Shown here: in pieces, positions 3,087 to 39,405 of the stretch
Layout: the number at the start of each line of letters is the position of its first letter
Position numbering within the stretch: position 1 is the stretch's first letter
Assembly: GCA_016932615.1 (NCBI GenBank)
Contig: JAFGCN010000018.1
Location: 3,495-67,494 of the forward strand
Source: Candidatus Aenigmatarchaeota archaeon
GTDB taxonomy: Archaea > Aenigmatarchaeota > Aenigmatarchaeia > QMZS01
Direction of reading: 5' to 3'
DNA: 64,000 bases
The notes under the pieces: model-generated
What the model was told of the DNA's origin: nothing
Databases searched by the model: none
Seen by the model: the letters and a program-made list of their open reading frames with translations, nothing else
Position numbers and translations under genes: made by a program

Positions 3087-3088
3087 AA

Positions 3089-3886: not shown

Positions 3887-4395
3887 ATTTCTTTATCCCC
3901 CAAATCCAAAAACCTTTCGTAAACCACCCTCATAAGCCCATCGGTTCCCGGGACAGTGCCCATCCTGGTGTAGCCCTGGCCTTCGTAAAGCATATTTGCC
4001 GCATTGTTTCCCGTCAGGGCCTTAAGCTCAAGGCGCCGTATGCCTTCCTTTTTGCATGCTTCGATATATAGCTCAAGCAGCTTTTTTCCAATTCCCGTTC
4101 TGCGTTGCTCTGAGCCCACAACAATCTTGTTAACCCTTGACGTAACCTCGTCAAACCTGGAGCCAATAATATAGCCCACAACACGCCCATCGATTTCAGC
4201 GGCAAAGCTTAGTTTCCACTTAAGGGGAATCTCCATAAGGAAGTTCTCCCTCGTCCAGGGAGTTTCGCCAAGGGCGGTCCAGTTGCACTCAAGCGCGAAA
4301 AAATCCTTCTCGTGCCTGATAAAATACTCTCTTGTAAGCTTCACAAAAGCCACTTTTTCGCTATGATTGGTTCCAGTTTTAATAGTAATCACCAT
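3883..4395 (-). CDS. GNAT-family N-acetyltransferase
   Basis: 170 aa. The acetyl-CoA motif is QRRTGIGKKLLE. Its stop overlaps the downstream start by 4 nt. Confidence 0.75.
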   Translation of the reverse strand: MVITIKTGTNHSEKVAFVKLTREYFIRHEKDFFALECNWTALGETPWTRENFLMEIPLKWKLSFAAEIDGRVVGYIIGSRFDEVTSRVNKIVVGSEQRRTGIGKKLLELYIEACKKEGIRRLELKALTGNNAANMLYEGQGYTRMGTVPGTDGLMRVVYERFLDLGDKEI

Positions 4396-4445
4396 AATAT
4401 AGTTATACCATCATTATATATTTCTATCCATAAATCTACAAGGAG

Positions 4446-5738
4446 TTACCACTTATTTCCCCAGTTTTTGCTCCTTCCCGTAAGAACCTCCAGCAAGACC
4501 CCGGAAAAGGACAGTATCCAAAGGGCGGAACTAAGGAACTTGAAGGCCATTATATGGTGATAATGGCGCGCGGTGTGCAGAAGCTCCCAAGGTATCTTCC
4601 TGGAGTCCCCTGAAAGCGCGGGCCCAAGCACCGGCGCGACGAAGGTAAGTGTAGTATCCCCTATCAGAAAATATGCTGCGTAAAGCGGATAAAAATAAAG
4701 GAGAAACGGAAAAAGCAATACCCCAACAGTATACACCGTAGCTTCTATCAGGCCGGGAAGGACGCTTAGGTATGCCAGCGACTTTGCTTTCGACCTCGGT
4801 CCAAAAATGCCCCTGCGTGTGTATATCACCTGCCAGGTTCCCTTGTACCACCGGTAGCTTTGCCGCAGCTGCCTTTGAAGGGTCGGGACATCCCCCGTGC
4901 TTACTATTGCGTCAGGCGCAAAGCTGATTTTGTATCCTTCTTCCTGCATCTTCCAGGTGTATGCCGTGTCCTCGGTCTGGACGTTCGTGGGTATAGGGAT
5001 TTTCCTTGCAATCTCAGAGCGGACCATAAACGAAGCCCCGCAGACGACGAAAACTCCCCGCCGGTAGCTTTGGGCGCTCTTCCTGAACTTGCTTATCCGG
5101 TTAATCCATTCTTTTCCAAAGTGGAAATATTTTGCGGCCCGGTTTTTGGGAGGTTTTACATATCCAAAAGAGGTTACAGCCGCAGCCCCCTCCAACTCAA
5201 TGCTTTCTACAAGCTTTCGTATAGTCCCGGAATGGAGTTTCAGCCCTGAATCAACAAAATAGACATACTCTCCCAGCTTTACTCCGGGGTCCCTTACAAG
5301 GGCGTTCAGCTTCTCTGATTTTGAGGTTATGCCCTTCCTGGACCAGTAATAGATTGCAGGAAACTCCTTCCTGAATCGGGCCAAGATGTTCTCCAGCTTT
5401 TCAACCTCTTCCCAGGTGTTATCCAGGTTTGAGTCCGAGACATAGATGTTCTTTATCGGGTAGTCCTGGCGAAGAACACTCCTTATCGACTTCTCGATAA
5501 TTCCTGATTCCCTGTGGGCAGAAATTACCACAGTAACTTCTCCCGCCTCACTAATGCTAACCCTGCCTGAAGGCCTCAGCTCTCCTTTCAGGTAGCCAGT
5601 GCCCTTTGGCTTAAGGGAAATTTTTCTGGATTTGACCCGGATATGATGGCAGGCCAAAGTCAAAACATCTATTGTAAGCGTTATAGGAAGCACAGCAAAA
5701 GGGACCGCAAGAAGCGCCAATAGTGCAGATAGGGACAT
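4446..5738 (-). CDS. membrane-embedded family 2 glycosyltransferase (processive type)
   Basis: N- and C-terminal TM helices. The GT-A core starts at VVISAHRESGIIEKSIRSVLRQDYP. LRQSYRWYKG is a Q(R/Q)xRW-like motif typical of processive beta-glycan synthases. Confidence 0.7.
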   Translation of the reverse strand: MSLSALLALLAVPFAVLPITLTIDVLTLACHHIRVKSRKISLKPKGTGYLKGELRPSGRVSISEAGEVTVVISAHRESGIIEKSIRSVLRQDYPIKNIYVSDSNLDNTWEEVEKLENILARFRKEFPAIYYWSRKGITSKSEKLNALVRDPGVKLGEYVYFVDSGLKLHSGTIRKLVESIELEGAAAVTSFGYVKPPKNRAAKYFHFGKEWINRISKFRKSAQSYRRGVFVVCGASFMVRSEIARKIPIPTNVQTEDTAYTWKMQEEGYKISFAPDAIVSTGDVPTLQRQLRQSYRWYKGTWQVIYTRRGIFGPRSKAKSLAYLSVLPGLIEATVYTVGVLLFPFLLYFYPLYAAYFLIGDTTLTFVAPVLGPALSGDSRKIPWELLHTARHYHHIMAFKFLSSALWILSFSGVLLEVLTGRSKNWGNKW

Positions 5739-9218: not shown

Positions 9219-10037
9219 CTAGAGATCATCGATAGGGCTTTTTATGCTTTTTATTGATGCCGAACTTACGTGAGTATAGATTTGGGTTGTCGAAATATTC
9301 TCATGGCCAAGAAGCTTTTGTATCAGCCTTATGTCAGTTCCCCCTTCAAGCAAGTGCGTAGCAAAAGAGTGCCTCAGTGTATGGCAAGTTGCCTTCTTCT
9401 TTATTCCGGCTTTCCTCGCGGAGTTCTCAAAGACTTTCTGTATCGTCTTTACCGGATATTTTCCGGACCTTCCCGAAAAAAGATAGGTTTCTGGCTTGTA
9501 GAGGCCAATATAATTAGCCAGGTCTTCCCTGAGAGTTTGGGGGAGCATCACATAGCGGTCTTTATTTCCCTTTGCTGAAACAATCTTAACCATGTCCCTG
9601 TCAAAATCTATGTCAAAAACCTTGAGGTTAGCCGCTTCAGAAACCCTTAAGCCCAGCCCGTAAAGGCACTTTAAAATGAGCTTATGCTTTGCGTTTTCAG
9701 TAGAGCTTATGATCTTTTTAACTTCCTCCTTTGACAAAACTGCTGGGAGGCGCTTCTCCCTTTTTGGCCTTGTTAACCCCAAGCAGGATTTTGTCTTCAG
9801 CACATCTCCAAGCCAGAAATTAAGAGCGCTTATCGCAAGGTTTGCAGTCAGGTTGGTATATTTTCTTTTCTCAATGAGGTAGGCCACATAAGATTTTACG
9901 TCCGCTCCATTAACCCCAGAAATATTTTTCCGTACGTATGCTGCAAAGTCCCTTGCAAAGAACAGGTATGCTTTCTTGGTCTTAGGGCTAAATCCCCTGG
10001 AATCAAGCTCGACAACAAGCCTCTCGAACTCATCCAT
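9219..10037 (-). CDS. tyrosine site-specific recombinase (XerA/XerC-like)
   Basis: 272 aa. Catalytic context is GLRVSE (Arg I), HTLRHSFATHLL (H-x-x-R), LLGHENISTTQIYTH (His/Tyr). There is no extra insertion of the kind found in integron integrases. Confidence 0.85.
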   Translation of the reverse strand: MDEFERLVVELDSRGFSPKTKKAYLFFARDFAAYVRKNISGVNGADVKSYVAYLIEKRKYTNLTANLAISALNFWLGDVLKTKSCLGLTRPKREKRLPAVLSKEEVKKIISSTENAKHKLILKCLYGLGLRVSEAANLKVFDIDFDRDMVKIVSAKGNKDRYVMLPQTLREDLANYIGLYKPETYLFSGRSGKYPVKTIQKVFENSARKAGIKKKATCHTLRHSFATHLLEGGTDIRLIQKLLGHENISTTQIYTHVSSASIKSIKSPIDDL

Positions 10038-10106
10038 AATTACAATGCTATTTCGTTAATACTCATAAAAGTTGAGGCAAAGGAGAATAAAGTTCGTTAA
10101 ACAGTT

Positions 10107-10171
10107 GTTATACGCAATTCGAAAACCCGCTCTTCTACGGAGCAAGCACAACGTAAGGGGGGGCGTTCTCC
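10107..10171. repeat. left arm of the imperfect inverted repeat flanking the R-M cassette
   Basis: The blocks gttatacgc..ttcgaaaacccgct..cggagcaag...gt..gggggggcgttctcc recur as the reverse complement, in the same order, at 12825-12958. Confidence 0.7.
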
Positions 10172-10174
10172 AAA

Positions 10175-11236
10175 CTAACACTTCAGTAGCTTTCTGAAAA
10201 TGTGCTTCAGGAATTCTTCTCTTTGGTCTTCATGCGTCAGAAGGGCAGTGAGGTTGTAAAAGTGTTTTATCGTTTTGTCTTTCTTGACTCTTTCCTCAAC
10301 TTCTGAGGTGATGCAGCTTGCCACAAAGATTGTAACGACTTCCCGATTTTGCCTTATTGCTTCTTCAAATGATTTCTTTGCGGCTCCATATCGTTCCAAA
10401 GCACCCGCAGGATCAGCACCGCCTTTTACCTCAATAACTGCTATAGTGGAACCATCTTTATCTATTATCGAAACATCAGGCTCACTTGAAAATATTACTG
10501 ATCTTTTGTTGCTAAGTGTAAATCCTTTGAACTCTCTAATCCTGTCTAGTTGAGACTTAGCCTTTTTCTTATCGAACTCCTCAATTCCTGAATGATTGTC
10601 CCTTAGCATGAATGCAGTGAGTTTGCATAAATCAATCGCTTCTTTGATTAGCAACTTCTGCACCACTTTTTCAGCTTCATCTCCTATCGCATTTCTCCAT
10701 GAGCCATCTATCTGAGCGCCAGTCGATGCAAACAAAAGACCTTTGATATGCTCAGTGCTAAAGTCTTCAAGGGCACTCTCAATTATCAAAGAGATGTGCT
10801 CATTAAACAGCTTAGATAGTTCCTTTGCCTGCACTTCAGAAAGGTTGTTTTTCTCTCCAAGCTCAAACCTCATTGTGTGAACTCCGCTTAGATAGCTTAC
10901 GGATTTTTGGGAAAGCGCAGCAACATTTCTGTAGTAAGCTATCAGAACGGGATGTTCTCTTAGGATTCTTGGATGAGAGAATACCTGTATCAAACTCAGA
11001 TTCGAATTCTTAATCTGCTCGAATGCTTCTTTTGTTATGCCCCAGGACTTATATTTCGTCCAGTCATAATCTTCAGACAAGGGAATCAGCTTTTGGATCG
11101 TTTCAGGAAACGTATAAGTGTTATACTCATGAAGTTTTCGGTAAAAGAAAGTAGACCTTAAGCGGTAATTGATTCTATGGGCCTCACTTAACAGCGCTTT
11201 TCTTTCTTCAGGGGACATACTCTTTTTCAGTGCCAT
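10175..11236 (-). CDS. type II restriction endonuclease (PD-(D/E)xK)
   Basis: 353 aa. EPDVSIIDKDGSTIAVIEVKGG fits a PD...(D/E)xK nuclease core. It lies 4 nt downstream of the methyltransferase gene. Confidence 0.6.
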   Translation of the reverse strand: MALKKSMSPEERKALLSEAHRINYRLRSTFFYRKLHEYNTYTFPETIQKLIPLSEDYDWTKYKSWGITKEAFEQIKNSNLSLIQVFSHPRILREHPVLIAYYRNVAALSQKSVSYLSGVHTMRFELGEKNNLSEVQAKELSKLFNEHISLIIESALEDFSTEHIKGLLFASTGAQIDGSWRNAIGDEAEKVVQKLLIKEAIDLCKLTAFMLRDNHSGIEEFDKKKAKSQLDRIREFKGFTLSNKRSVIFSSEPDVSIIDKDGSTIAVIEVKGGADPAGALERYGAAKKSFEEAIRQNREVVTIFVASCITSEVEERVKKDKTIKHFYNLTALLTHEDQREEFLKHIFRKLLKC

Positions 11237-11240
11237 AATA

Positions 11241-12782
11241 CTATTTCTCCCAATAATAGACGCATTTTCTCACCTCTTTTCTTCCATGCTTGCCCATCTG
11301 TTGGCTGCTGTTTCCTTTTCCGCTTGGAAGCTTATATATTTTTTTGATCTTTAAGCCAGACTTCGAGGCAAATTCCGACAAAATCAGATCGACAGGTATA
11401 ACTTCTCCGGCATATCTTACATTGTCATTTACATAGTAAATTCTACCTCCTTTTTTAAGAGTCCTTGCGAGTTCCATGATTACGAAGGCGTGTTCGTAGA
11501 AGTAATTTCTGACCATTCGGGATATACCGGGATTGTTCAGTTTCTTTTCAGTCTTGTATTGTTCAAGAATCGTCAAAACTTCTTGTAGTGCCTCATTAGA
11601 TTCAAATATCTTCTCCGCCTTCTTAAAATCCTCTTTTCTGCCCGCTTTCTCATATAGCGATCTTAAGTATTCTACCTTGTCCTTGTTTTCTACGGTTGCG
11701 GATAAGAGGGTCTGTCTTAGATTTCTTATGCCTTCTTCATCAATACCCAAATATGCTAATTCTAAGGCATAAGTTCGGGTATAATCATAGCGGTTACAAT
11801 AAGGGGGCGAAGAGACTACTAAGTCAATGGATTCGCCTTTTATTTTAGGGAGTATCTCTAGGCAAGATCCGGTCTTTAATTCAACTTCTGGACTTTTTCT
11901 ATTCCTTGAATCAAAGAGTTTCATGTTTCTCAAATCCCCAAGGATTTGATTTAACTGAGAAAAAAGCGCCTCTTCAAATCCATAAATCTTCCCCTTGTCA
12001 AAACTGCCCTTTCCTTTTTCTGCTCTGAGATCCCATCTTAGGCATTGGCCATCCTTTCGGGTATGACTTATTCGTTCAAGTATGCTAAAGCACGCGAAGC
12101 TAAAGACGTTCCTTAACTCTGGGTCTTCAGTGGTTGAGAGATAGTTTAGAAAACCATTGAGTTTTCTCTCAGTGATTTTTGGAAATGCCTTTTCAGTAAT
12201 TTTTATATGTTTGAAGGAAGTCTCCATCTTCTCAGGATACGTCTCGAAGTTCACGCTTTTTAGTTCTTTGATTTTTTCTGAGAGGTAATCGGGGTCCATT
12301 TTTTCTAGAGACAGTTTGGCTTTAAGTATGAAGTTGCCAAGGGGCATAAGCTCTATGCCGAGAGACGAAAATCCAACTTCCTTTGCACTCAGCAAAGTGG
12401 TGCATGATCCAGCAAATGGGTCAAAGACCAAGCCTTTTTTGTTCGGATAGTCTTGCATGAACAGCTTAACCATATCTGATGAGAAACCTTCCTTAAAGCT
12501 AAACCAGTTGTATATTGGGATTTTCTTATTTGCTTGGAAACTAACTAACTGACGATTTAGAAGCGAATAGGTTTCAATCAAGCCCTTGTATCTCTCTTCT
12601 AGTTTATCTCTTTCTGAATGTTCCGGCTCTTGAAGTTTAGAGTCGCCCATTGATATATCCTTAGCCATAAGTCCTTCTGTTTTTTGAGACAAAATATTAG
12701 AACTAGTGATCTGTGATTGTGTGCAAAGTTTATGTGCCTTCTCACAAGTAATCATATTTGGTTTAGCAGCAACCCTCACCAT
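11241..12782 (-). CDS. DNA methyltransferase (N4-C/N6-A class, SPPY catalytic motif)
   Basis: VFDPFAGSCTTLLSA is the SAM-binding motif I. About 200 aa downstream, VVSSPPYCNRYDY is catalytic motif IV. An alternative start (MAKDISMG) is at 12668. Confidence 0.8.
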   Translation of the reverse strand: MVRVAAKPNMITCEKAHKLCTQSQITSSNILSQKTEGLMAKDISMGDSKLQEPEHSERDKLEERYKGLIETYSLLNRQLVSFQANKKIPIYNWFSFKEGFSSDMVKLFMQDYPNKKGLVFDPFAGSCTTLLSAKEVGFSSLGIELMPLGNFILKAKLSLEKMDPDYLSEKIKELKSVNFETYPEKMETSFKHIKITEKAFPKITERKLNGFLNYLSTTEDPELRNVFSFACFSILERISHTRKDGQCLRWDLRAEKGKGSFDKGKIYGFEEALFSQLNQILGDLRNMKLFDSRNRKSPEVELKTGSCLEILPKIKGESIDLVVSSPPYCNRYDYTRTYALELAYLGIDEEGIRNLRQTLLSATVENKDKVEYLRSLYEKAGRKEDFKKAEKIFESNEALQEVLTILEQYKTEKKLNNPGISRMVRNYFYEHAFVIMELARTLKKGGRIYYVNDNVRYAGEVIPVDLILSEFASKSGLKIKKIYKLPSGKGNSSQQMGKHGRKEVRKCVYYWEK

Positions 12783-19393: not shown

Positions 19394-19525
19394 GAAAAAC
19401 AATTTCTGAAAATTAACTTTTTTATTTTTTTGTGTTTCATTCCACCCTGTGAAGAAAAACTACACTCTACTAAGAGCCCGGTTTCAGGCAGGAAGTTGAT
19501 TTATAAAATTCCGGAGAATCAATAT

Positions 19526-20443
19526 ATGGAGCAAAAGAGCATTTTGTTCGTCTGCACTGGAAACACTTTCCGAAGCGCGATTGCCGAGCAGTCATTCAGG
19601 AAGTATCTCAACGATAACAACATCCCAGGATGGAAGGTAGGTTCCGCAGGAATAATCGCAAGAAAAGATTCGATGGACCCAAAAACAGTAAGCTCACTTG
19701 AAATGCTTGGCGTCTCCAGCATCAAGCACAGGCAAAAAAAGCTGACCCGGAAGATGCTAAAGCGCCACGACATAATTGTCGCCATGGCTGAAAATCATGC
19801 AGAATTCATAAAGACAAAGCTCGGATTCAGCCGGGTTCTTCTATTTAATGAGCTGGCCACCAACAAAAAGACCTCTGTTCTGGACATTCAGGACGAGGTA
19901 AAGGATTACAGGACAAACCGCAGGGCGGTGGAAAGGAAAATCGAAAAGACGGCCTGCCACATTTTCAGAAACATTCCAAATCTTTTCAAAAACGCCTCCG
20001 AAAGGTACTACCTGTTTTCCGACTTTGTCGATGGGTACAAGACCCACCGAAACGGGTTTCCCTTCATACGACTCCACGAAACAAAAAACACGGTCTCGTT
20101 TATGTCCATAAACATCCCTTCAAAGGAGGACGGGCACATCCTGATTATTCCAAAGAAAAGATACCCCGACCTTTCGGAGATTCCAAAGAACGTCCTAAAT
20201 GAGCTTTCCCTATCAATCCAGCAGATAGGCGCTGCCATAAGCAAAAACCATGGCGGCTACAACCTCCTCCTGAACAATGGCATAGAAGCCGGGCAGTGGA
20301 TATACCACACACACTTCCACATCGTCCCAAGAAAATACAATGATGGGATAAAAATAGAAGTCTGGAAGCACCAGAACATTTCAATTAAAAAATTTATCTA
20401 TTTGAACCGGCGGCTCAGGCGCCAAATTCAGTCTGCCGGATAA
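19526..20443 (+). CDS. fusion protein: low-molecular-weight phosphotyrosine phosphatase/ArsC-like domain plus HIT (histidine triad) domain
   Basis: The internal ATG gives MEQKSILFVCTGNTFRSAIAE (CX5R(S/T) P-loop). The C-terminus has IYHTHFHIVPR (HxHxHxx histidine triad). Confidence 0.75.
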   Translation: MEQKSILFVCTGNTFRSAIAEQSFRKYLNDNNIPGWKVGSAGIIARKDSMDPKTVSSLEMLGVSSIKHRQKKLTRKMLKRHDIIVAMAENHAEFIKTKLGFSRVLLFNELATNKKTSVLDIQDEVKDYRTNRRAVERKIEKTACHIFRNIPNLFKNASERYYLFSDFVDGYKTHRNGFPFIRLHETKNTVSFMSINIPSKEDGHILIIPKKRYPDLSEIPKNVLNELSLSIQQIGAAISKNHGGYNLLLNNGIEAGQWIYHTHFHIVPRKYNDGIKIEVWKHQNISIKKFIYLNRRLRRQIQSAG

Positions 20444-21206: not shown

Positions 21207-22964
21207 CTATGCTGATTTACTCTCAGGCCCAGCCCCATAATATCCCTGCCATAGGCCGCTAAAGAAAGCCGCCGCATTTTCACCCAGAGAAACCGTATTG
21301 TACCCGCCCTCCTGAACAACAAGAGTAGGAATCCGAAGCGAGCCAATCAAAAGCCCAAGCTCCCGGAAATCTTTTGATTCAAACTTCCAGCTTCCGGTAG
21401 GGTCATTTTTCGAAGTGTCAAAACCCAAAGCCACCACCAGATGGTCTGGGGCAAACCGGGAAATCCTCTTCAATGCTTTTTCGAGAAAACCACGGTACTC
21501 TTCAAAAGACAGGTCTTCCTTCAGGGGAAAATTTAAGTTGTGCCCCTTACCCAGCCCTTCCCCTTTTTCCTCTGCAAAACCTGAAAAGTACGGGTAGGCA
21601 AAACTCGGGTGGCCGTGAAGGGAAATTGTCAGGACGTCTTTTCGGCCATAAAATATTACCTGCTGCCCGTTTCCGTGGTGGTAATCTATATCGAGAATTG
21701 CAACCTTTCCCGCCTTGCTAAGGTAATTTGCAGCAATTGCTGCTGAGTTAAGGTAACAAAACCCGCCAAAGGACTTTTTCTCCACATGGTGGCCTGGCGG
21801 CCTTGTCAGGGCATAAGCAAGCCCGCCATTAAGGTTCACCAGCTTCGCTCCAGTAAGGGCAGAATTAACCGCGCTTCTGGCTGCGATAAAAGCGTTGCGG
21901 TTTAGCGGGGTAAAAGTGTCTATGCAGTAATACCCTGCCCTTATGTCCAGGTCCTTTGGCTTTTTCACGCTGTTTCTTATAGGGAAGACATAGGGGTAAA
22001 TTGATTTTTCGGGTGGAGTATCGATGCAAATCTTCTTGAGATACCGGAAGAACTCGGGAGAATGGACTTCGAGAATGTGCCTGTCGGAAAAAACTTCTCT
22101 AGGAAATTTCCTGAAAAGAGGCATCTTTTCAATAGACGCAAGTATGCTCCTAATCCTTACCGGAGACTCGACGTACCCCCTTTCAGGCACGTGATGGAGC
22201 TTATGGTCCTCGTTTACTATCAGGGCAATTTTCTTTCTCTCCGGGACCTGCTGGTGATAGTCCTTGGAAGGCGTGCTGTACTTGTAGCTCCTTAGCCGGA
22301 CTGGATCTTCAGAGAATGAGGAGAGCACCATTTCATTGTACTTCGTGCCGCAGAGGTGCTCGTATTTTCTTTCAAGGATTCCCCTTACAACTTCCCTTGC
22401 GAAGTCCCTTGAAAGAGGCCTTCCGCTGTCCAGGTCATCATATACCAGGTAAGGGGGATTTTCCGGCTTTTTCGGGTTTACTGGAGTCTCATACTTAGTG
22501 CCTGCTATGGGCCTTGCGCCATACCTTTCATAAAACTTCAGGCGGGAAATATTCTGCCTCAGGATTTTAGGGTCAGAGCAAAGCTTAGGGTCATCCGGCA
22601 GGCACTCAAAAAAAAGCCCCTTGCAATTGCGTATTTTCGCCTCTTTTCTTATGACAGAATAAAGCGCGCCGCCGATCCCACGGCCGCCGTACTTCGGGTT
22701 TATTCCCATGAAGTCAAGGTAGCAAAAGCTGATTTTGGGAAAATAGGACAGGATTGCAAAGCCCCGAAGGTTTCCCCTTATTCCCTCCACGACAAAAAGT
22801 ATGGACCTAAAACCGTACTTTTCGGGGTGATTTAGCGCAAGGGCAATCTCTTCGGCCTTCTCCTTCTCCAGAGGGAAAAGGGCAAGCATAAGCGCTCGAA
22901 CATCCCCAATAATTTTCTTGCTCCGTTTTGAAGTGCCGTCATGGATTTTCCTTATCCTTATCAT
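21207..22964 (-). CDS. fusion protein: N-terminal GNAT acetyltransferase plus C-terminal histone-deacetylase-family (HDAC/AcuC/APAH) domain
   Basis: GNAT motif GGRGIGGALYSVIRKEAK. HDAC motifs RPPGHHVEKKSFGGFCYLNSAAIAA, DIDYHHGNGQQ and LVVALGFDT. The start is trimmed to MIRIRK (22964) to remove overlap with 23014-24297. Confidence 0.75.
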   Translation of the reverse strand: MIRIRKIHDGTSKRSKKIIGDVRALMLALFPLEKEKAEEIALALNHPEKYGFRSILFVVEGIRGNLRGFAILSYFPKISFCYLDFMGINPKYGGRGIGGALYSVIRKEAKIRNCKGLFFECLPDDPKLCSDPKILRQNISRLKFYERYGARPIAGTKYETPVNPKKPENPPYLVYDDLDSGRPLSRDFAREVVRGILERKYEHLCGTKYNEMVLSSFSEDPVRLRSYKYSTPSKDYHQQVPERKKIALIVNEDHKLHHVPERGYVESPVRIRSILASIEKMPLFRKFPREVFSDRHILEVHSPEFFRYLKKICIDTPPEKSIYPYVFPIRNSVKKPKDLDIRAGYYCIDTFTPLNRNAFIAARSAVNSALTGAKLVNLNGGLAYALTRPPGHHVEKKSFGGFCYLNSAAIAANYLSKAGKVAILDIDYHHGNGQQVIFYGRKDVLTISLHGHPSFAYPYFSGFAEEKGEGLGKGHNLNFPLKEDLSFEEYRGFLEKALKRISRFAPDHLVVALGFDTSKNDPTGSWKFESKDFRELGLLIGSLRIPTLVVQEGGYNTVSLGENAAAFFSGLWQGYYGAGPESKSA

Positions 22965-23013
22965 AACATAGACTGGAAGAGTTGGATATAATGTTTCGGG
23001 TGTTGCTAAAAAC

Positions 23014-24297
23014 CTAAACAACCTTGACTTTCTCCCCGGCAAGCTCGGACAGGAGGGACTCAAGCTTCATGCGCTCGACAAGATGCTTTCTTGAGGCAAT
23101 TTTTGAAAACTCACGTTTGTCCTCCTCCAAGACGCTCTTTTTCTCCTCCAGGTCTTTTATCTGGGCGTCCAGCCCATCAGTAACGACAGCTTTTCTGAGC
23201 CGCTCAATCTCACCTGAAATCTTCTTCTCGCAGCTTATTGTCTTCTGTAACTCTGCGGCAAGATTCATTACAGATTCGGCAGCCGAGGGCTTAACCTCAG
23301 CGGGCTTTTTCTTTTTCTTCTTTCCTGCGATTGCCTTAGAGGCAGCCGCCCGCTCTGCCTTCTTTAGAATCTGCTCATATGTGGGAAGTTGCGACAGGGA
23401 TTCTCCGGGATTTCTGAAAAACTCATCCAGGGCGGCAAGGTCCGATTTCTTTACGTCCTTATGGCTATGAAGATAAACCCCCACAAGCTTTTCTGTCCCG
23501 GCGACCTGAATATTGAGTTCCTTAAGCTGCGCTTCCTTCTCCCTGGCTATTTCCTCAAGCTCATCCTTGAGCCGCTCGTAATGCATATAATCCTTGGACT
23601 TGTAAACCTTGTCTCTCCGGGAATAGGCCTCATCCAAACTCCCCGAAACCTCATTGAGCGCTGCTTCAACTTTTGAAAGCTTCTTTCTGGCGGTTTCCTC
23701 CTCCTCCCTTGCCGCGATAAGCTCCTTTGCAACGCTTCTTGCCTCCTCAAGCCGGCTTACCCAGGAATAGTCCTTTCGAAGGACCTCCTCATAAAACTTG
23801 ATGTCTGTATAAAGGTCCTTAAGGTCATTCGTGATGTCCCGCATCTCGTCCTTGAAGGTTATGAGGATTATCTGGGCCTGCCTGGAGAAGCTGTTAAGCT
23901 TTTCAAAAGCATGGACAACCATGTCCCGGACTTTCTCCGGGTCATCCTGAACCTTTATATGCACAAGCGTGTCCTCAAGAAGCTTCTTTGAGGAAGTGCA
24001 GTAGTGCGCGCGGCTTGACCTCACTACCTCCGTAATGTCCCGGTTCGTTTCAAGCACAATTTTTTCTACATCTGCATCTTCGAGCTTTCCAAAGTCATCG
24101 ATAAGAAGGTTAAGCCGGTGCGCAAACCTTGACTTGTGGTGGTCAAGCTTGTCCCTAAATCCCGCGATATCGCCTTCGGTTCGCTCAAGTACAAATTTAT
24201 CGACCTCCTCAAGCCGGACCCTGCGCCCGCTGCCTGAGGGAATTGGCGCCTGCTCTTCTGGCTTATTCCTGGAAAAAAGCTTTTTCAGAAAGTCCAT
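23014..24297 (-). CDS. coiled-coil protein of unknown function
   Basis: 427 aa. Long heptad-like E/K/L-rich stretches and a poly-K tract (AGKKKKKKPAEVKP). Confidence 0.5.
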   Translation of the reverse strand: MDFLKKLFSRNKPEEQAPIPSGSGRRVRLEEVDKFVLERTEGDIAGFRDKLDHHKSRFAHRLNLLIDDFGKLEDADVEKIVLETNRDITEVVRSSRAHYCTSSKKLLEDTLVHIKVQDDPEKVRDMVVHAFEKLNSFSRQAQIILITFKDEMRDITNDLKDLYTDIKFYEEVLRKDYSWVSRLEEARSVAKELIAAREEEETARKKLSKVEAALNEVSGSLDEAYSRRDKVYKSKDYMHYERLKDELEEIAREKEAQLKELNIQVAGTEKLVGVYLHSHKDVKKSDLAALDEFFRNPGESLSQLPTYEQILKKAERAAASKAIAGKKKKKKPAEVKPSAAESVMNLAAELQKTISCEKKISGEIERLRKAVVTDGLDAQIKDLEEKKSVLEEDKREFSKIASRKHLVERMKLESLLSELAGEKVKVV

Positions 24298-33797: not shown

Positions 33798-34208
33798 CTA
33801 GAACTGAATTTTTCTGGCAGTACCTAGAACCAAGTCTCTCATTGGACATATCTGACAATCCGAATTTTCAGATAGATACTTTATTTGTTTATCCCTAATC
33901 TCCATAACATCTCCTGTTTCCAAGGGCAAAACTCCCGTGTGTTTTAATTGATTAAACAGATTGTACGTTGCTCCACAGGAATCGCAAATATCCCCCCTCC
34001 ATTTGAGGTAACTAACTTCGGCAATCTCTTTAGCAAAACTTGCGGTATCTAATCCGCCTAATCCTGAAGCATCACACCACCTCTCATAGGTATCACCGGG
34101 AAGTAATTTTAGATTAAGCGCCTGCCGCTCCAGAATTCTTTCTGGGGTCTTCTTGCCCGGCCTTCCGCACATCACAGGTTCGCCATCGCCAGAATATTCA
34201 AAAACCAT
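33798..34208 (-). CDS. hypothetical Cys-containing protein
   Basis: 136 aa. The pairs DICDSCG and DCQICP suggest a Zn site. Family unknown. Confidence 0.4.
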   Translation of the reverse strand: MVFEYSGDGEPVMCGRPGKKTPERILERQALNLKLLPGDTYERWCDASGLGGLDTASFAKEIAEVSYLKWRGDICDSCGATYNLFNQLKHTGVLPLETGDVMEIRDKQIKYLSENSDCQICPMRDLVLGTARKIQF

Positions 34209-34225: not shown

Positions 34226-34492
34226 CTAAATTACGCCAAGCTTAACGGCAATATCTCCTGCAGGGCTTTCTGGCTTCAATTTAACGATTGCCTTCTTGCT
34301 CCCTGTCCGGTCAATAAGCGTGTTAACCTTTTCCACTTTGACCTTGAATTCCTCTTCAAAGGCCTGCTTTACCACCATCCGGGGCGTTTTAAGGACTTTC
34401 AGCTTGAAAATCAGCTTGTTTTCGCTCTCTATGAGCCGAACCGCCTTTTCGCTCGTAACCGGATGCTCCACTAGCTCCCAAAATGATACCAT
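34226..34492 (-). CDS. rpl23: 50S ribosomal protein L23 (uL23)
   Basis: 88 aa. HPVTSEKAVRLIESENKLIFKL...KVEKVNTL...KKAIVKL is a typical uL23. Confidence 0.85.
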   Translation of the reverse strand: MVSFWELVEHPVTSEKAVRLIESENKLIFKLKVLKTPRMVVKQAFEEEFKVKVEKVNTLIDRTGSKKAIVKLKPESPAGDIAVKLGVI

Positions 34493-34570
34493 AAGATAAA
34501 TAGCAAAAGATTAAAAGGGTCTAAAAGGCAAAAAATTCGCCCCTCTTGTATATTATAGCAGATATGTATT

Positions 34571-35344
34571 ATGGCTGATTCCTCAGCAAAAGGAGCATAT
34601 TCTGGATACTCTGAAAATAAAGGTGCGAAGGCACGGTCGGCAGGCAATGTCAATCCCCCCGTTGGCTTTGACCCAAATTACTTCAGGCAGACCTCCAAAG
34701 GAGATGCTAATAACCCGGAGGCAAAAAAAGCCGCCGAGGAATTATACGAGGCGCTTCCCCCAGCAATCCAAAACTATCTTGCCCGGGAGCAGGCGGCAAC
34801 TTCAAGAGCAAACTACGGCCCACCCACAAACCACAAAATCATGTCTGGTGTAGATGCGGCATATATGAAGCAGGGCTCAAAAAGCCCAGTTAACTATGCC
34901 GCCACTCCTGGAAAATCGCCGGGGCAGATGCAGGTCGCGCCAAATTATGATAGCAAAATGGCGCAGCAGCTGGGCCCGGGCAAGGGGCCAAATCCTCAGA
35001 TGCCCGTCCCCCCAAGCCCCGGACGAATGCTGGCTTCCATGTTTATCCCCTTAATCCCCTCAGCACTTGTTTACAAAGCCGGATTCAACATAGCCCAGTC
35101 AGCATTCCCTGGATTGGCATACTCTAGTCTACCCTATATTGGGAGTCTAGGAGGACCCGGAGGACTCGCCCTGGGAATCGGCATGGCCTACGGACTAACC
35201 AAGGTATCTGGAGCAGTTTTCAAGGGCGCAAGCAAAGTCGTCCAGAAAGTGTACCAGAAAAAAGACAAGCTGAATAAGGGCTACGAAGCCCTTCAAAAGC
35301 CAGGCGCCGCGCCGGCAGGCCCGATGCCTGCAAGAGGAATATGA
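34571..35344 (+). CDS. P1: protein with a P/G/A/N-rich disordered N-terminus, two Gly-rich TM helices and a basic C-terminal helix (unknown family)
   Basis: 257 aa. It is paralogous to 36427-37233: YDSKMAQQLGPGKGPNPQMP vs YDSGMASQLKANPQVP, and KVSGAVFKGASKVVQKVYQKK...GYEALQKPGAAP vs RVSGRIFKGVMKYSSGIMKK...GYERLAKAAALP. Confidence 0.6.
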   Translation: MADSSAKGAYSGYSENKGAKARSAGNVNPPVGFDPNYFRQTSKGDANNPEAKKAAEELYEALPPAIQNYLAREQAATSRANYGPPTNHKIMSGVDAAYMKQGSKSPVNYAATPGKSPGQMQVAPNYDSKMAQQLGPGKGPNPQMPVPPSPGRMLASMFIPLIPSALVYKAGFNIAQSAFPGLAYSSLPYIGSLGGPGGLALGIGMAYGLTKVSGAVFKGASKVVQKVYQKKDKLNKGYEALQKPGAAPAGPMPARGI

Positions 35345-35904
35345 CCGAAGGAGAAATCAAGGCAGGAGGAAAAACAATCCTGGAAAATGTGCAGGGTGCG
35401 TACCGACAGGAAAAATCAGCTCCACCTGTAGTGAATCGGGCAGGAATGGCGCAATACAACTCCTCAATTGCTTCGCCCTACCTGGCAAACACAGCCCCAT
35501 ACTCTGCTTTCCCCCCACCAGGCGCAAAGCCCGCCCAGCTATCCAAAAAAGCGCAGCTTGGAGTTTACCTTGCAATCGGAGCGCCAATTACATATTGGAT
35601 TGGCGCAAAAATCGCCCAAAAAAGCGAACCTGTGGCAGAATACCTGCAGGAACATGGAGGTGTTCTTGGAAGGGATTGGATTGGGCTCGAGCCGCTAGCC
35701 ATTGGAATCCCGACAATCCTTGGGCTTTACCTTGCAACAGATAAAATCGTCGAGCGCCTTAGGCCAACTGCAGAAAAAATTGCAAAAGGCCCTGCAAAAA
35801 AGCTTGTAGACGGATACAAAAAGCTGGAAGACCGCGCGGCAGATTCCCTTTTGGCCGCAGATTCCATAGTGCAAAAGGCCAAAAAAGCGCAGGAAAGGAG
35901 ATAA
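35341..35904 (+). CDS. P2: shorter protein with the same architecture (disordered N-terminus, two TM helices, basic helical tail)
   Basis: 187 aa. ATGA start/stop overlap with P1. TM segments are LGVYLAIGAPITYWIGAKIA and LAIGIPTILGLYLA. Confidence 0.55.
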   Translation: MTEGEIKAGGKTILENVQGAYRQEKSAPPVVNRAGMAQYNSSIASPYLANTAPYSAFPPPGAKPAQLSKKAQLGVYLAIGAPITYWIGAKIAQKSEPVAEYLQEHGGVLGRDWIGLEPLAIGIPTILGLYLATDKIVERLRPTAEKIAKGPAKKLVDGYKKLEDRAADSLLAADSIVQKAKKAQERR

Positions 35905-35907
35905 ATA

Positions 35908-36300
35908 CTACTCAAGAATTTTTCTGAGCCGTCCCGCTTTTCCCTCGCTAAGCTTCTTGTCGATCTCACCGGAAAGAATTTCAAAAAATTTCATCTGCCC
36001 ATCTATGAATTCTTCAGCTGCCTTCAACCCTTCCTTATCGTCTTTTGCGCATTTCTTTAGTGCCTTTTTAACCTCAGCAAAATATTCTATCCATGTCTCT
36101 GAAACCCCTTTTGCAACCTTCAGCCGCTCAAGATCTCCCTCTCGCTCTGCCTCGTCAATCGCCCTCAAAAGAACAGTAACCTGCTCGTTATACCTGCCTT
36201 CTGTTTCCTTGAGAAGCTGGTCAAAATCAATCTGAATGGGAGAAAAATCCTCCATTGGGCACGAGGTCTTCCTTGAAGCCCTCTTTTTACAGGCAGCCAT
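35908..36300 (-). CDS. H1: small all-helical protein, paralog of 37262-37654
   Basis: The start is trimmed to MAACKKRASRK (36300), giving 130 aa, the same length as H2. Shared blocks are LLRAIDEAEREGDLERLKVAKGVSETWIEYF and FFEILSGEIDKKL. It is convergent with P2, 3 nt apart. Confidence 0.6.
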   Translation of the reverse strand: MAACKKRASRKTSCPMEDFSPIQIDFDQLLKETEGRYNEQVTVLLRAIDEAEREGDLERLKVAKGVSETWIEYFAEVKKALKKCAKDDKEGLKAAEEFIDGQMKFFEILSGEIDKKLSEGKAGRLRKILE

Positions 36301-36426
36301 AACTTTCCTAAGGAAATATATATTCAAGACAGGTAAAGCTTGTTCGCAGATCCTTGCTTTCCTGCAAACCTCCCCAAACCACTCTGACAAACCAAAACCG
36401 CTTAAGTACTCCCGCCAGCTAATATT

Positions 36427-37233
36427 ATGGAAAGCCCGCCCAAAAAGGGAACTCCTGGCAATATTCAGGATATAACTGGGCCATATATCGCTTCTTTAGC
36501 TTTACCGCAAGGAAAATACACTTCAACTGCAGCCGCTCCGCCCACAGGCGCAAGCTATAATTCTTCCGGGAGCTCCGCAACTTCCGGAAACACAATTGTA
36601 AACAATACCATGGCTCAGTATGAAAACGCCACTGGCAAAACTGCAGTTCCTGTTTCTGCTTCCGGACAGTATAACGGCGCTCATGCTCCAGGAAGCAGGC
36701 AAAGCATAGTTTCAGGCGTTAATGGCACATATTCTTCGGGAGGAATTCAAAGCCCCGTTGCAGGGCGTCCGGGCGCGCCTGCTTACGATAGTGGTATGGC
36801 TTCCCAGTTAAAAGCGAACCCTCAGGTTCCAGGAAGAAGGTCTCCAGCGAGCAGTGGAACCCAAATGGCAGGAACTGCACTAAAAACCTTTCTTCCGGTA
36901 GGGCTTGGGCTAATGGCTTCTTCTGCCTGGTACGGAATTGCAATTAAGGGCTCCTATGCAGCATCCAAGGATGCAGCCACCTCGCCCCAGTTTGCCGAAT
37001 TTATGAGCCAGCACAGCTGGTTTGCCCCTGCACCCCTTATTGCAGGAACCGTAGCGATATACCTTGGCTCAAGGGTTTCAGGCCGGATTTTCAAAGGGGT
37101 CATGAAATATTCCTCAGGCATTATGAAAAAAATAGAAAACAAAAAAGCCGCCAGAGAGCTTGAAGCGGGCTATGAGCGGCTTGCAAAGGCCGCGGCACTT
37201 CCCGTCACTCCAAAAGCAGCCCCAATTTCCTAA
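36427..37233 (+). CDS. P3: paralog of P1
   Basis: 268 aa. S/G/A/P/N-rich N-terminus, TM segments FLPVGLGLMASSAWYGIAI and APAPLIAGTVAIYLG, and a basic tail collinear with P1. Confidence 0.6.
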   Translation: MESPPKKGTPGNIQDITGPYIASLALPQGKYTSTAAAPPTGASYNSSGSSATSGNTIVNNTMAQYENATGKTAVPVSASGQYNGAHAPGSRQSIVSGVNGTYSSGGIQSPVAGRPGAPAYDSGMASQLKANPQVPGRRSPASSGTQMAGTALKTFLPVGLGLMASSAWYGIAIKGSYAASKDAATSPQFAEFMSQHSWFAPAPLIAGTVAIYLGSRVSGRIFKGVMKYSSGIMKKIENKKAARELEAGYERLAKAAALPVTPKAAPIS

Positions 37234-37261
37234 AAATTAAGAGCCCATAAAGCATTACGGC

Positions 37262-37654
37262 TTATTCCAGAACTGCCCTGAATCGTCCTGTACTGAGATC
37301 ATGAAGCTTTTTGTCTATCTCACCTGAAAGTATTCTGAAAAAATGAACCTGCTCGTCAATAAAGCTGTTTACAACACTTATGCCTTCCCTATCTTTTCCC
37401 GCCATATCCTTCGCTCCGCTTTTCAGCGCCTCAAAATATTTTATCCAGGACTCCGCAATCGACTTTGAAATCTGAAGCTTTTCCCTGTTGCCCTCACGTT
37501 CCGCCTCCTCGATGAACCTGAGAAGAATTGTTACCTGCCCGTCATATTTTTCCTGGGCAAGGCGCACAAATTTTTCAGAATCGACCTCGACAAACTTTTC
37601 CGAGTTTTTAGCAGGTTTTTTCCTGCAAGCCGCTCTTTTTACCAAAGCGCCCAT
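37262..37654 (-). CDS. H2: small all-helical protein, paralog of H1
   Basis: 130 aa. LLRFIEEAEREGNREKLQISKSIAESWIKYF and FFRILSGEIDKKL. It is convergent with P3, 28 nt apart. Confidence 0.6.
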   Translation of the reverse strand: MGALVKRAACRKKPAKNSEKFVEVDSEKFVRLAQEKYDGQVTILLRFIEEAEREGNREKLQISKSIAESWIKYFEALKSGAKDMAGKDREGISVVNSFIDEQVHFFRILSGEIDKKLHDLSTGRFRAVLE

Positions 37655-37723
37655 AATATTTGCTAAATCGATATACTTAATAGCCGCCCTGCACAGACTG
37701 CAATCAAAAAAATCCCATTCAAA

Positions 37724-38521
37724 TTACTTCCACTTGCCGACCTGCTCTATTGCGGACTTTGTCCACACGGTCAGCCGGCCCGCATGCGCTCCTGGAGCCA
37801 AAAGCTCGGCGTTAAGCTGGTCAACGGTTGAAATATCAAGCCCCGCAATGTTTCTTGCAGCTTTCTGAAGCTCGCATTTCTTTGAGACAATCACCAAAGG
37901 GCCTTTTTTCTTCTTGTACCGCCTTCCCCTCATTGTTCCGATTCCCTGCCGGACCTTTTTTTCCTTTGACCTCTCAAGCTCCTCAACCAAGCCCAGGGAA
38001 ACCAGAGCGCCATAAGCATCCTTGGTTTTGTCAATCTGCTCAAAATCATCGACAAGCACAAGAGGAATTTCCTTAAGGGCTTCAACCTTGTGGCCCCTTT
38101 TAAGAACAATATCCTTATTGGCGGAAGCTGCAATCGCGGACATGATGGCAAGCTTTTTCTCTTTCTTGTTCAGGTCCTTGCTCCAGTCCTTCTCAGCTAC
38201 AGGCGGGTGGCATTCCCTGCCCTTTACTGCCTGAGGCACAAATCTTGCGACAAACAGGAGCGGGCCTTCGCCGTGGATTCTCGACATTCTTGCCATCTCC
38301 CTTTTCGCCATCTTTGCCCTCCCGTAAACATGGGAAGAGCCGTGGTAGTGGGCAGAAGTCCTCTTTCCTGCCAAAGGGTCAGCTCCATAACGTTTCCTCT
38401 TGTTTGACTGCTGTGAAACTACTACTTTTCTTATAAGGTCTGCCCTAAGAGGAGTTTTGAACACCTCTCCAAGCTTTACTGTCCCTACTTTCTCGCCCTT
38501 TAGCGAATAAACATTAGCCAT
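37724..38521 (-). CDS. rpl4: 50S ribosomal protein L4 (uL4)
   Basis: 265 aa. MANVYSLKGEKVGTVKL..., QSNKRKRYGADPLAGKRTSAHYHGS and GTMRGRRYKKKKGPLIV are typical archaeal uL4. Confidence 0.85.
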   Translation of the reverse strand: MANVYSLKGEKVGTVKLGEVFKTPLRADLIRKVVVSQQSNKRKRYGADPLAGKRTSAHYHGSSHVYGRAKMAKREMARMSRIHGEGPLLFVARFVPQAVKGRECHPPVAEKDWSKDLNKKEKKLAIMSAIAASANKDIVLKRGHKVEALKEIPLVLVDDFEQIDKTKDAYGALVSLGLVEELERSKEKKVRQGIGTMRGRRYKKKKGPLVIVSKKCELQKAARNIAGLDISTVDQLNAELLAPGAHAGRLTVWTKSAIEQVGKWK

Positions 38522-38614: not shown

Positions 38615-39319
38615 CTATATCCTAAAACCTAAAGGTAGTACTCTTTTTGCAGGAGGTGGTCTTATGCCAGTTCTTTCCAGAACAACACTTGCTTTGATGG
38701 GACGACCTATCAGAGAAAGACCTCGCTTCGCCCTCTCTTCCTCTTCCATAGCTCCCGTAAAGACTTCCTGTCCAAACTCTGGCTGCCTTATCTCACCACC
38801 AGAATACCTTAAGTCAAGCTTAAACCTACCCTCAGGGGTCCTGCTTCTTCCAACTACATCAAACCTAAGCAAAACATCGCGGTATTTAAGATATATCTCC
38901 TTTCCCATATCGCCCCGATACAAAAGATTACCTCCACTCAAAAAAGCCCCCTCCAGCTTGCTTGCCGGGTCTGAGCCAAGAATATGCCTCATTGCGGGGT
39001 CATCCCCACGGTAGTCGGACTCACCAAAAGCATAGTAAAAAGCCCTTTCAACCAACCCTGGATTATGCCCCGATTCATTGGAAGGGACAGTAACCTGTAC
39101 TTCATACCGACCCGGGCGATATATCCACCCTTTGCCTTTTAGGTAATCATATTTCCCAGGGGGGCGCCTTTTTTTCAGGGAAGGGGGAGGATCATAACCA
39201 TTATATGTATCAAACGCTTCTGTTGGAGCAGGTATCATCAGCATCCAGCACCGTATCCTGACATAATAAACTACTTGGATAAAAAATAAAATACACAATC
39301 GGGCAGAACCCGGGGGCAT
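38615..39319 (-). CDS. hypothetical protein (start uncertain)
   Basis: The track ORF starts at a GTG (39346). The first ATG is at 39319, with others at 39244 and nearby. N-terminal hydrophobic segment; no recognised motif. It occupies the position where rpl3 would normally precede rpl4. Confidence 0.4.
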   Translation of the reverse strand: MPPGSARLCILFFIQVVYYVRIRCWMLMIPAPTEAFDTYNGYDPPPSLKKRRPPGKYDYLKGKGWIYRPGRYEVQVTVPSNESGHNPGLVERAFYYAFGESDYRGDDPAMRHILGSDPASKLEGAFLSGGNLLYRGDMGKEIYLKYRDVLLRFDVVGRSRTPEGRFKLDLRYSGGEIRQPEFGQEVFTGAMEEEERAKRGLSLIGRPIKASVVLERTGIRPPPAKRVLPLGFRI

Positions 39320-39405
39320 CCCAACTCCAATAACACAAGCAACCACACCAGTTATAACAATTAAAGTGAACCACCCTCATGTCAAGAACACGGAGAGTTC
39401 AAGGA

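Follow-up and report, generated by a model that had tools for sequence, protein, structure and literature searches.

Between the genes for ribosomal proteins (r-proteins) L23 and L4, the window analysed here (64,000 nucleotides of contig JAFGCN010000018.1 from a Candidatus Aenigmatarchaeota archaeon) contains five anonymous open reading frames (ORFs), designated P1, P2, H1, P3 and H2 (Table 1). The stop codon of P1 and the start codon of P2 lie in a shared stretch of 4 nt (ATGA); P2 converges on H1, and P3 on H2. DPANN archaea have an unusually large share of unannotated genes (PMC6393860). An initial annotation of the window described the five ORFs as a duplicated two-component module, and the ORFs, their lengths and the two short gaps between convergent stops are as it gave them. 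A longer H1 from a TTG start at 36390 was also considered, but homology gives it no support.

Table 1. Features of the P/H module and of other parts of the window; positions are those of the 64,000-nt window
Feature	Position	Strand	Length	Basis or remark
P1	34571-35344	+	257 aa	ORF list
P2	35341-35904	+	187 aa	ORF list
H1	35908-36300	-	130 aa from ATG	ORF list
P3	36427-37233	+	268 aa	ORF list
H2	37262-37654	-	130 aa	ORF list
P2/H1 stop-to-stop gap	35905-35907		3 nt	convergent
P3/H2 stop-to-stop gap	37234-37261		28 nt	convergent
P3 motif A	36703-36732	+		SIVSGVNGTY, residues 93-102
P3 motif B	36784-36810	+		YDSGMASQL, residues 120-128
P3 hydrophobic segment 1	36865-36945	+		residues 147-173
P3 hydrophobic segment 2	37015-37071	+		residues 197-215
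P3 C-terminal motif	37156-37182	+		ELEAGYERL, residues 244-252
H2 helical bundle (predicted)	37268-37579	-		residues 26-129
H2 N-tail	37580-37654	-		residues 1-25; basic, flexible
Ribosomal protein L23 (rpL23)	34226-34492	-		Pfam Ribosomal_L23, E=4e-9; low-coordinate flank of module
Ribosomal protein L4 (rpL4)	37724-38521	-		Pfam Ribosomal_L4, E=1.1e-36; high-coordinate flank of module
Divergent rpL23/P1 intergenic region	34493-34570		78 nt	
Divergent H1/P3 intergenic region	36301-36426		126 nt	read from sequence
rpL4/H2 spacer	37655-37723	-	69 nt	
TATA-like AT-rich box AATATATATTT	36318-36328	-		~20-28 nt 5' of H1 ATG
T7 run	37706-37712	-		in rpL4/H2 spacer, just 3' of rpL4
Inverted repeat, exact	37174-37185 / 37624-37635		12 nt	brackets H2
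Inverted repeat, 93% complementary	36417-36430 / 37651-37664		14 nt	spans P3 and H2 start-codon contexts
Cys-rich ORF	33798-34208		136 aa	flanks rpL23
ORF with weak codon signal	38615-39346		243 aa	flanks rpL4
Tyrosine recombinase	9219-10037	-		XerC/D or phage-integrase type
Restriction endonuclease	10175-11236	-		XcyI/BsoBI-like
N6/N4 DNA methylase	11241-12782	-		next to the endonuclease
Domain fusion	19430-20443		337 aa	low-molecular-weight phosphotyrosine phosphatase + HIT domain
Domain fusion	21207-23063		618 aa	GNAT acetyltransferase + histone-deacetylase-family domain

The proposed duplication is borne out by the protein comparisons. H1 and H2 are 43% identical over 129 aa (E=3e-38), with 66% identity over 245 bp at the DNA level; P1 and P3 are 32% identical over 191 aa (E=1e-12), P2 matches P3 with E=5e-6, and the motif blocks quoted in the initial annotation for P1/P3 and H1/H2 are all present in the alignments. 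These similarities are far beyond chance, and the paralogy of H1/H2, P1/P3 and P2/P3 is beyond doubt. When the paralogous DNA is compared in six frames, the annotated frame comes out on top for every pair (62.8 bits for P1/P3 against at most 28.1 in the other frames; 115 bits for H1/H2 against 87.8 for the next). The annotated frame of each of the five ORFs is also the highest-scoring of the six in a codon-usage log-odds model, for which 31 confident genes from the window served as the training set. Coding signal in the low-complexity P ORFs, on which the duplicated module had been said to depend, is in this way found by both methods. H1 and H2 score as ordinary genes (0.36 and 0.27 bits/codon; training mean 0.31, standard deviation 0.07), and the lower scores of P1 (0.17), P2 (0.23) and P3 (0.08) are expected from their unusual composition. 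Codon-usage signal is practically absent (-0.05 bits/codon) from the initial ~146 codons of P3, and the true start of this gene may therefore be further downstream. No opposite-strand ORF of 80 aa or more lies wholly inside any P gene.

Profile comparison shows H to be a genuine, narrow family. When 1.84 billion cluster representatives were searched exhaustively with an H1/H2 profile (hmmsearch, E<=1e-3), 20 proteins matched, comprising H2 of the window, 18 true relatives and one spurious protein. The score of the spurious match (P0019, 2761 aa with 19 repeats) comes from adding up 19 domain scores, none of them significant; its bias is 93.6, and it is lost with the family profile. The 18 relatives are 79-174 aa long and have the conserved core Y..VT.LLR.I..AE...D...L...W(I).YF...FI..Q(I).FF..L..E in common. 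Word-indexed searches with the H and P profiles found the window's own proteins only, the same type of search with the H family profile added only three members, and a metagenome scan with a tightened H alignment re-found one contig that was already known. Those relatives that are named at their source are a "hypothetical protein" of a Candidatus Aenigmarchaeota metagenome-assembled genome (MAG), with one from a MAG labelled Nitrospirota; the majority of the matches have no source name. The Aenigmarchaeota MAG encodes at least five H paralogs (JW727_01710, JW727_02255, JW727_02635, JW727_03140 and JW727_04475). One H homolog (P0013, from locus L008) bears the JGI label "soluble cytochrome b562", which is probably an automated label derived from the resemblance of helical bundles. 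A 163-aa protein (P0017) was considered as a fusion of P motifs A/B with H, and the motif profile gives this no support (E=1.3).

H proteins are soluble, without a signal peptide or a transmembrane segment, and are predicted to form an antiparallel three-helix bundle of ~104 residues. The AlphaFold2 model of H2, made with a 20-sequence alignment, is a three-helix bundle with helices at residues 26-54, 57-84 and 89-129 (mean predicted local distance difference test, pLDDT, 84.3; predicted template modelling score, pTM, 0.67). In H1, the three-helix core of ~104 aa is preceded by a short N-tail (K+R 5, D+E 3). The Lys-rich N-tail of the family is 7-69 residues long and net basic in 15 of the 19 members that possess one, with up to 26 K/R and no D/E, and the core is charge-neutral (K+R approximately equal to D+E).

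The P proteins are built in a different manner. Their N-region is variable, disordered and Tyr/Ser/Gly-rich and carries two short motifs, motif A, I-(L/V)-S-x-(V/I)-x-x-(A/T/S)-Y, and motif B, Y-x-S-(G/S)-(M/L/F)-(A/S)-x-x-L. The C-terminus is a tail that is net basic by charge count and ends in an amphipathic (K/E)-L-x-x-x-Y-E-x-L helix. In P1 the N-region is polar and disordered (62% G/A/S/P/N/Q/T), the motif A/B block occupies residues 89-137, Gly-rich hydrophobic segments lie at 151-175 and 190-217, and the basic C-tail ends in KLNKGYEALQK. P2 has motif A from residue 12, hydrophobic segments at 71-91 and 113-137 and a basic tail with KKLVDGYKKLE. This short architecture, with motif A near the N-terminus, is typical of the relatives described below, and P1 and P3 have ~90 additional N-terminal residues compared with it. 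An AlphaFold model of P3 alone is uninformative (pLDDT 39). From the hydrophobic segments, insertion of P in the membrane is likely but not certain. Since P has no signal peptide and has a basic C-tail, its N-region is more likely to be cytoplasmic than surface-exposed. P is the fast-evolving partner of the two.

The initial annotation had tied its proposal to the adjacency of P and H homologs in other genomes, and H homologs on other archaeal contigs do lie mostly beside an unannotated partner, which is P-like in six cases. Genomic context was read for 13 H genes in ten distinct loci (the module genes of L002 and L003 are identical, as are those of L005 and L006). For eight of the 13, an unannotated ORF lies directly 5' of H in the same orientation, with stop and start codons that abut or overlap by 4-11 nt. 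These eight are in L002 (two pairs), L004, L005, L007, L009 (one pair), L012 and L013, and the overlap is 4 nt in L004, L005 and L009. The second H gene of L009 and a P-like gene diverge, with 26 nt between them. The compact two-gene operon seen in relatives is absent from the window, where both pairs are convergent. This convergent, possibly antisense-overlapping orientation, presented at first as part of the module, is real in the window and found only there among the loci read; it is not a property of the module, since the partner is upstream on the same strand in L002, L004, L005, L007, L012 and L013. The surroundings of all loci are archaeal housekeeping genes, and the scans gave no viral or mobile-element matches.

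A more complex version of the module is found in L009, which derives from the same sequencing run as the Aenigmarchaeota MAG. Its positions 2551-5387 hold a five-gene array in the order 202-aa ORF (+; possibly P-like by eye), P-like 218-aa gene (-), H' (+), 237-aa gene (+) and H (+), and the product of the 237-aa gene is A/G/E-rich with an FKG motif. Within positions 394-2460 of the 3.1-kb contig of L011, a gene for an rve-family integrase lies two genes upstream of H. This contig was binned as Nitrospirota, but the presence of an L7Ae gene points to an archaeal origin, and it is probably mis-binned.

Six partners have the P architecture in the same order (two in L002, and one each in L004, L005, L012 and the divergent pair of L009), and most of the six carry the C-terminal (K/E)L...Y(E).L helix. 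Two small profiles were made from the partners of the relatives only, with the window left out, and compared with 424 stop-to-stop segments of the window. The N-motif profile places P1 first (E=0.0047) and P3 second (E=0.12), and the C-terminal profile again gives P1 and P3 ranks 1-2 (E=0.26 and 0.69). The motif A/B region of the window P proteins and of the partners is also aligned by hhalign, with P=0.007. Because profiles of partner motifs alone pick out P1 and P3, P-like and H proteins are linked across genomes. In a 7-row alignment, I6, Y14, Y32, S34, L157, Y161 and L164 are invariant. A P-H pair can be defined operationally as an H core beside an ORF with motif A, motif B, one or more Gly-rich hydrophobic segments and a C-terminal LxxxYxxL; both window units, L002 twice, L004, L005, L012 and L009 (divergent) are pairs of this kind.

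Thus, P and H are very probably the two proteins of one co-functional module. On balance it is probable that this module is an undescribed one, restricted to a lineage of small-genome (DPANN, Aenigmarchaeota-like) archaea, and that its two products most likely act as a single complex on the cytoplasmic side of the membrane. The translational coupling of the genes in relatives argues for a stoichiometric complex. A specific docking arrangement can be proposed tentatively, its chances coming close to even at best. P would be anchored in the membrane through its Gly/Ala-zipper segment or segments, which probably drive oligomerisation, with both ends in the cytoplasm. H would dock on a conserved cytoplasmic motif of P, most simply on the C-terminal amphipathic helix taken up as a fourth helix, and the basic tail of H would contact a polyanion, which could be acidic lipid or nucleic acid.

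Several observations weigh against such a complex. Two hydrophobic segments, which the initial annotation called transmembrane helices, are present in the P proteins of the window, but they are Gly/Ala-rich and of marginal hydrophobicity (Kyte-Doolittle 17-residue maxima of 1.2-1.6), and the partners in L012 and L013 have a single C-terminal hydrophobic segment. With one segment, a cytoplasmic N-region would place the C-tail outside the cell, which misfits the binding of H to the C-terminal helix. The convergence of P and H in the window implies that their co-translation is not obligatory. H stands alone between rpS7 and rpL7Ae in L011, the partial upstream ORF on the short contig of L008 is not P-like in appearance, and the 237-aa ORF upstream of H in L009 has no hydrophobic segment. 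The homology of the P proteins to the partners in relatives rests on short motifs, as a full-length P1-P3 profile retrieves no partner at E<10, and the hhalign probability is only 5%.

A more elaborate form of the membrane complex, which is improbable, is a DPANN-specific membrane scaffold of an undescribed kind. The Gly-zipper hairpins of P would oligomerise, and the prion-like Tyr/Ser/Gly-rich cytoplasmic regions would cluster. H, as a "mini-BAR"-like protein with a polybasic tail, would bridge P to acidic lipid or to ribosomes or the nucleoid. Binding to lipid could shape or partition the membrane of very small cells, and binding to ribosomes or the nucleoid could tether translation or DNA to the membrane. 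If this were true, the recurrent position of the module by genes for exit-tunnel r-proteins (L4/L23, L29) and SecE would be meaningful.

The same neighbours can be explained in another way, in which H is a stand-alone housekeeping factor of translation or protein targeting, for example a ribosome- or RNA-binding protein, and the P proteins are variable neighbours that are at most tethers. In four of nine independent loci, H has r-protein genes no more than three genes away, namely in the window (L4, L23), L011 (S7, L7Ae), L013 (L29-SUI1, S8) and L007 (the P1/L12 stalk protein, L19e), and the pair in L004 follows SecE. The binomial p for this proximity is ~0.03 with a background of 15%, which is an assumed estimate. 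Such proximity is weak evidence because DPANN genomes are rich in information genes and the r-protein clusters are scrambled here; the locus L013, from an Aenigmarchaeota sample, is likewise scrambled, with L29-SUI1, S8 and L14 dispersed. The tails of H resemble the basic extensions of nucleic-acid-binding proteins, but the H core is charge-neutral and the r-proteins are not. Searches of Pfam and NCBIfam match H to no r-protein family, and its position between L4 and L23 is its only r-protein-like trait. At least five divergent H paralogs in one small genome would be unusual for a core translation factor, and the abutting same-strand upstream partner of eight of the 13 H genes, with several 4-nt overlaps, argues for a stoichiometric partner. 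A stand-alone role of H is unlikely.

The translational coupling seen in relatives, the multiple copies within one genome, the independent tandem duplication in two lineages, the fast evolution of one partner and the insertion into an otherwise conserved operon junction are also what would be expected of a selfish or conflict cassette (toxin-antitoxin-like, or a membrane toxin with its immunity protein) that spreads within genomes; the integrase gene 5' of the H gene in L011 fits as well. This reading is nevertheless quite unlikely. P and H match no toxin, antitoxin, immunity or defence family in Pfam, NCBIfam and PADLOC (E<=0.1), and they have no matches in PHROGs and no relatives among the viral contigs of IMG/VR. 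The GC content of the module is not anomalous (0.48-0.49 against 0.44-0.50 around it), and no flanking repeats beyond chance mark an insertion around it. The P proteins are large and mostly disordered, unlike the known small membrane toxins, and P and H are not co-transcribed in the window. The toxin/immunity, holin-like, secretion-accessory and cell-surface systems to which the initial annotation had compared the module have no support: there is no toxin, defence, phage or IMG/VR match, and the neighbours are housekeeping genes. For a holin or lysis cassette, there is no PHROGs match, and the P proteins are 187-268 aa long and mostly disordered. For the accessory subunits of the Sec system (SecE/Sec61-beta/SecG), Pfam and NCBIfam give no match to P1-P3 or to seven P-like relatives, and the SecE gene ahead of the pair in L004 is the sole connection.

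That the P ORFs are not genes but low-complexity ORFs opposite or beside a functional H is very improbable, for although their composition, their codon scores below the training range (P3 and its N-terminal 146 codons above all), the low pLDDT of P3 and the failure of full-length profiles to find a database homolog would allow it, paralog comparison and codon usage both favour the annotated frame over the other five, the order of the motifs is conserved in three paralogs, partner ORFs beside H on unrelated contigs carry these motifs too, and no opposite-strand ORF competes.

The history of the two-protein module can be followed in outline. In a neighbour-joining tree of H, H1 and H2 of the window are sisters, and so are the two copies of L002 (L002Ha and P0006). 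As these are separate sister pairs, tandem duplication has occurred independently in two lineages. The H paralogs of the Aenigmarchaeota MAG are scattered over the tree and are therefore old. The most economical history of the window can be told in four steps. First, a collinear P->H pair would have arrived in the L4|L23 junction, H would then have been inverted relative to P, the P/H unit would have been duplicated in tandem, and a further duplication of P would have given the translationally coupled P1-P2.

The junction that the module occupies is normally tight. In a Nanohaloarchaeal locus, the genes run L3-L4-L23-L2-S19-L22-S3 without interruption and L4 overlaps L23, so that the module breaks this junction. 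The locus was obtained by scanning GTDB with rpL4 (43% identical) and serves as a reference for the canonical order rather than as a close relative. The r-protein cluster of the window is broadly scrambled, with rpL3 and rpL2 not flanking rpL4/rpL23. The window itself is archaeal chromosome, encoding class I LysRS, tRNA-splicing endonuclease, Cbf5/TruB, DUF655, CDC48, enolase and UvrB, and the neighbours of the module include rpL4, rpL23, agmatinase and similar genes. Beyond rpL23 and rpL4 lie the Cys-rich 136-aa ORF and the 243-aa ORF. Neither has a family match in Pfam or NCBIfam; the 136-aa ORF has a weak, below-cutoff match to an adenylate-kinase lid (E=0.0043).

Oligo-T terminators and TATA boxes are general signals of archaea, and candidates for both are found at the junctions of the module. 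AT-rich TATA-like boxes lie ~15-30 nt 5' of the start codons at the junctions read by sequence, so that each module gene appears to have an AT-rich promoter box of its own. The divergent H1/P3 region is the presumed site of the promoters for both genes, and the rpL4/H2 spacer carries the TATA-like TATTAAGTATAT on the minus strand 5' of H2. The T7 run after rpL4 may be an archaeal-type terminator, and a T6 run 3' of H1 is located within the 3' end of P2. The exact inverted repeat that brackets H2 was considered as the scar of an inversion, but chance alone would produce ~0.4 such repeats in the region. The longer inverted repeat may reflect a common initiation context of P3 and H2, as the start contexts of the two genes have AATATTATGG in common.

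Elsewhere in the window, the genes for the tyrosine recombinase, the restriction endonuclease and the DNA methylase are probably an acquired restriction-modification island, and the GC content at 9219-12782 is 0.40-0.42 compared with ~0.47 elsewhere. Two genes encode unusual domain fusions (Table 1), one of which includes a HIT domain; HIT-domain genes are also found near the P/H array of L009. The whole 64 kb yielded neither a tRNA gene nor an Rfam family at the gathering threshold.

Few of the unannotated families of DPANN archaea have any functional handle. Here, five anonymous ORFs have become a defined module with a signature (the H core, motifs A/B and the C-terminal helix), one confidently predicted fold, genomic linkage and repeated duplication. 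A membrane scaffold or tether, if true, would bear on the organisation of the envelope or of translation in very small host-dependent cells. A selfish cassette, if true, would be a new archaeal type.

As the initial annotation had stated, neither component matches a recognised family: Pfam, NCBIfam, PHROGs, PADLOC, PDB sequences and Foldseek (PDB, BFVD) are all without a match. For P1-P3 and H1-H2, Pfam, NCBIfam, PHROGs and PADLOC gave nothing beyond isolated sub-threshold noise, and no family recurs when 20 H members and seven P-like relatives are scanned one by one. Foldseek relates the H model to generic three-helix bundles only (best E=0.41 in PDB and 0.15 in BFVD), and the H family profile has two weak matches among all PDB sequences, a designed protein and the BAR domain of APPL1 (E=0.015). 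The module has no detectable relation to any described family in the searches run, and no new mechanism is implied by this.

The weak likeness to APPL1 is local. It lies in helices 2-3 of H (WIxYFxxL...FIxxQIxFF compared with HYFCAL...YMQAQISFF), and the BAR domain, like H, combines a helical coiled-coil bundle with a basic membrane-facing element. However, the APPL1 constructs have 265-280 residues compared with ~104 in the H core, Foldseek of the H model gives no BAR match (E<0.4), and the APPL1 match is below significance, as is the one in Pfam, BAR_4 at E=0.024 in one of 20 H members; the other 19 show no BAR match. For P, the two adjacent Gly/Ala-rich (small-xxx-small) segments recall the glycine-zipper hairpins of Mic10 in MICOS. 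The small-xxx-small hairpin arrangement drives the oligomerisation of membrane hairpin proteins. P differs from Mic10-type proteins in the long disordered region at its N-terminus, in its basic C-tail, in the single segment of some relatives and in the lack of sequence or profile similarity. Compared by description only, the DPANN cluster cls.004340 (NEQ484-like; PMC6393860) is similar to H in being alpha-helical, DPANN-restricted, uncharacterised and set in a housekeeping neighbourhood.

For the pair as a whole, an analogy can be drawn with the MIT/MIM interaction of ESCRT-III and Vps4, since H is a small three-helix bundle and its membrane partner P ends in an amphipathic helix. The MIM1 consensus is (D/E)xxLxxRLxxL(K/R), which the (K/E)LxxxYExL of the P C-terminus loosely recalls. 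MIT helices are shorter than the 28-41 residues of the H helices. In place of an ESCRT-III core, P contains a disordered N-region and hydrophobic hairpin segments, no MIT or ESCRT-III match is found in Pfam, with the PDB sequence profile or among the top 50 Foldseek matches, and no ESCRT-III or Vps4 gene lies beside H in any locus read. As a loose analogy, P/H may work most like a pair consisting of an adaptor and its membrane anchor.

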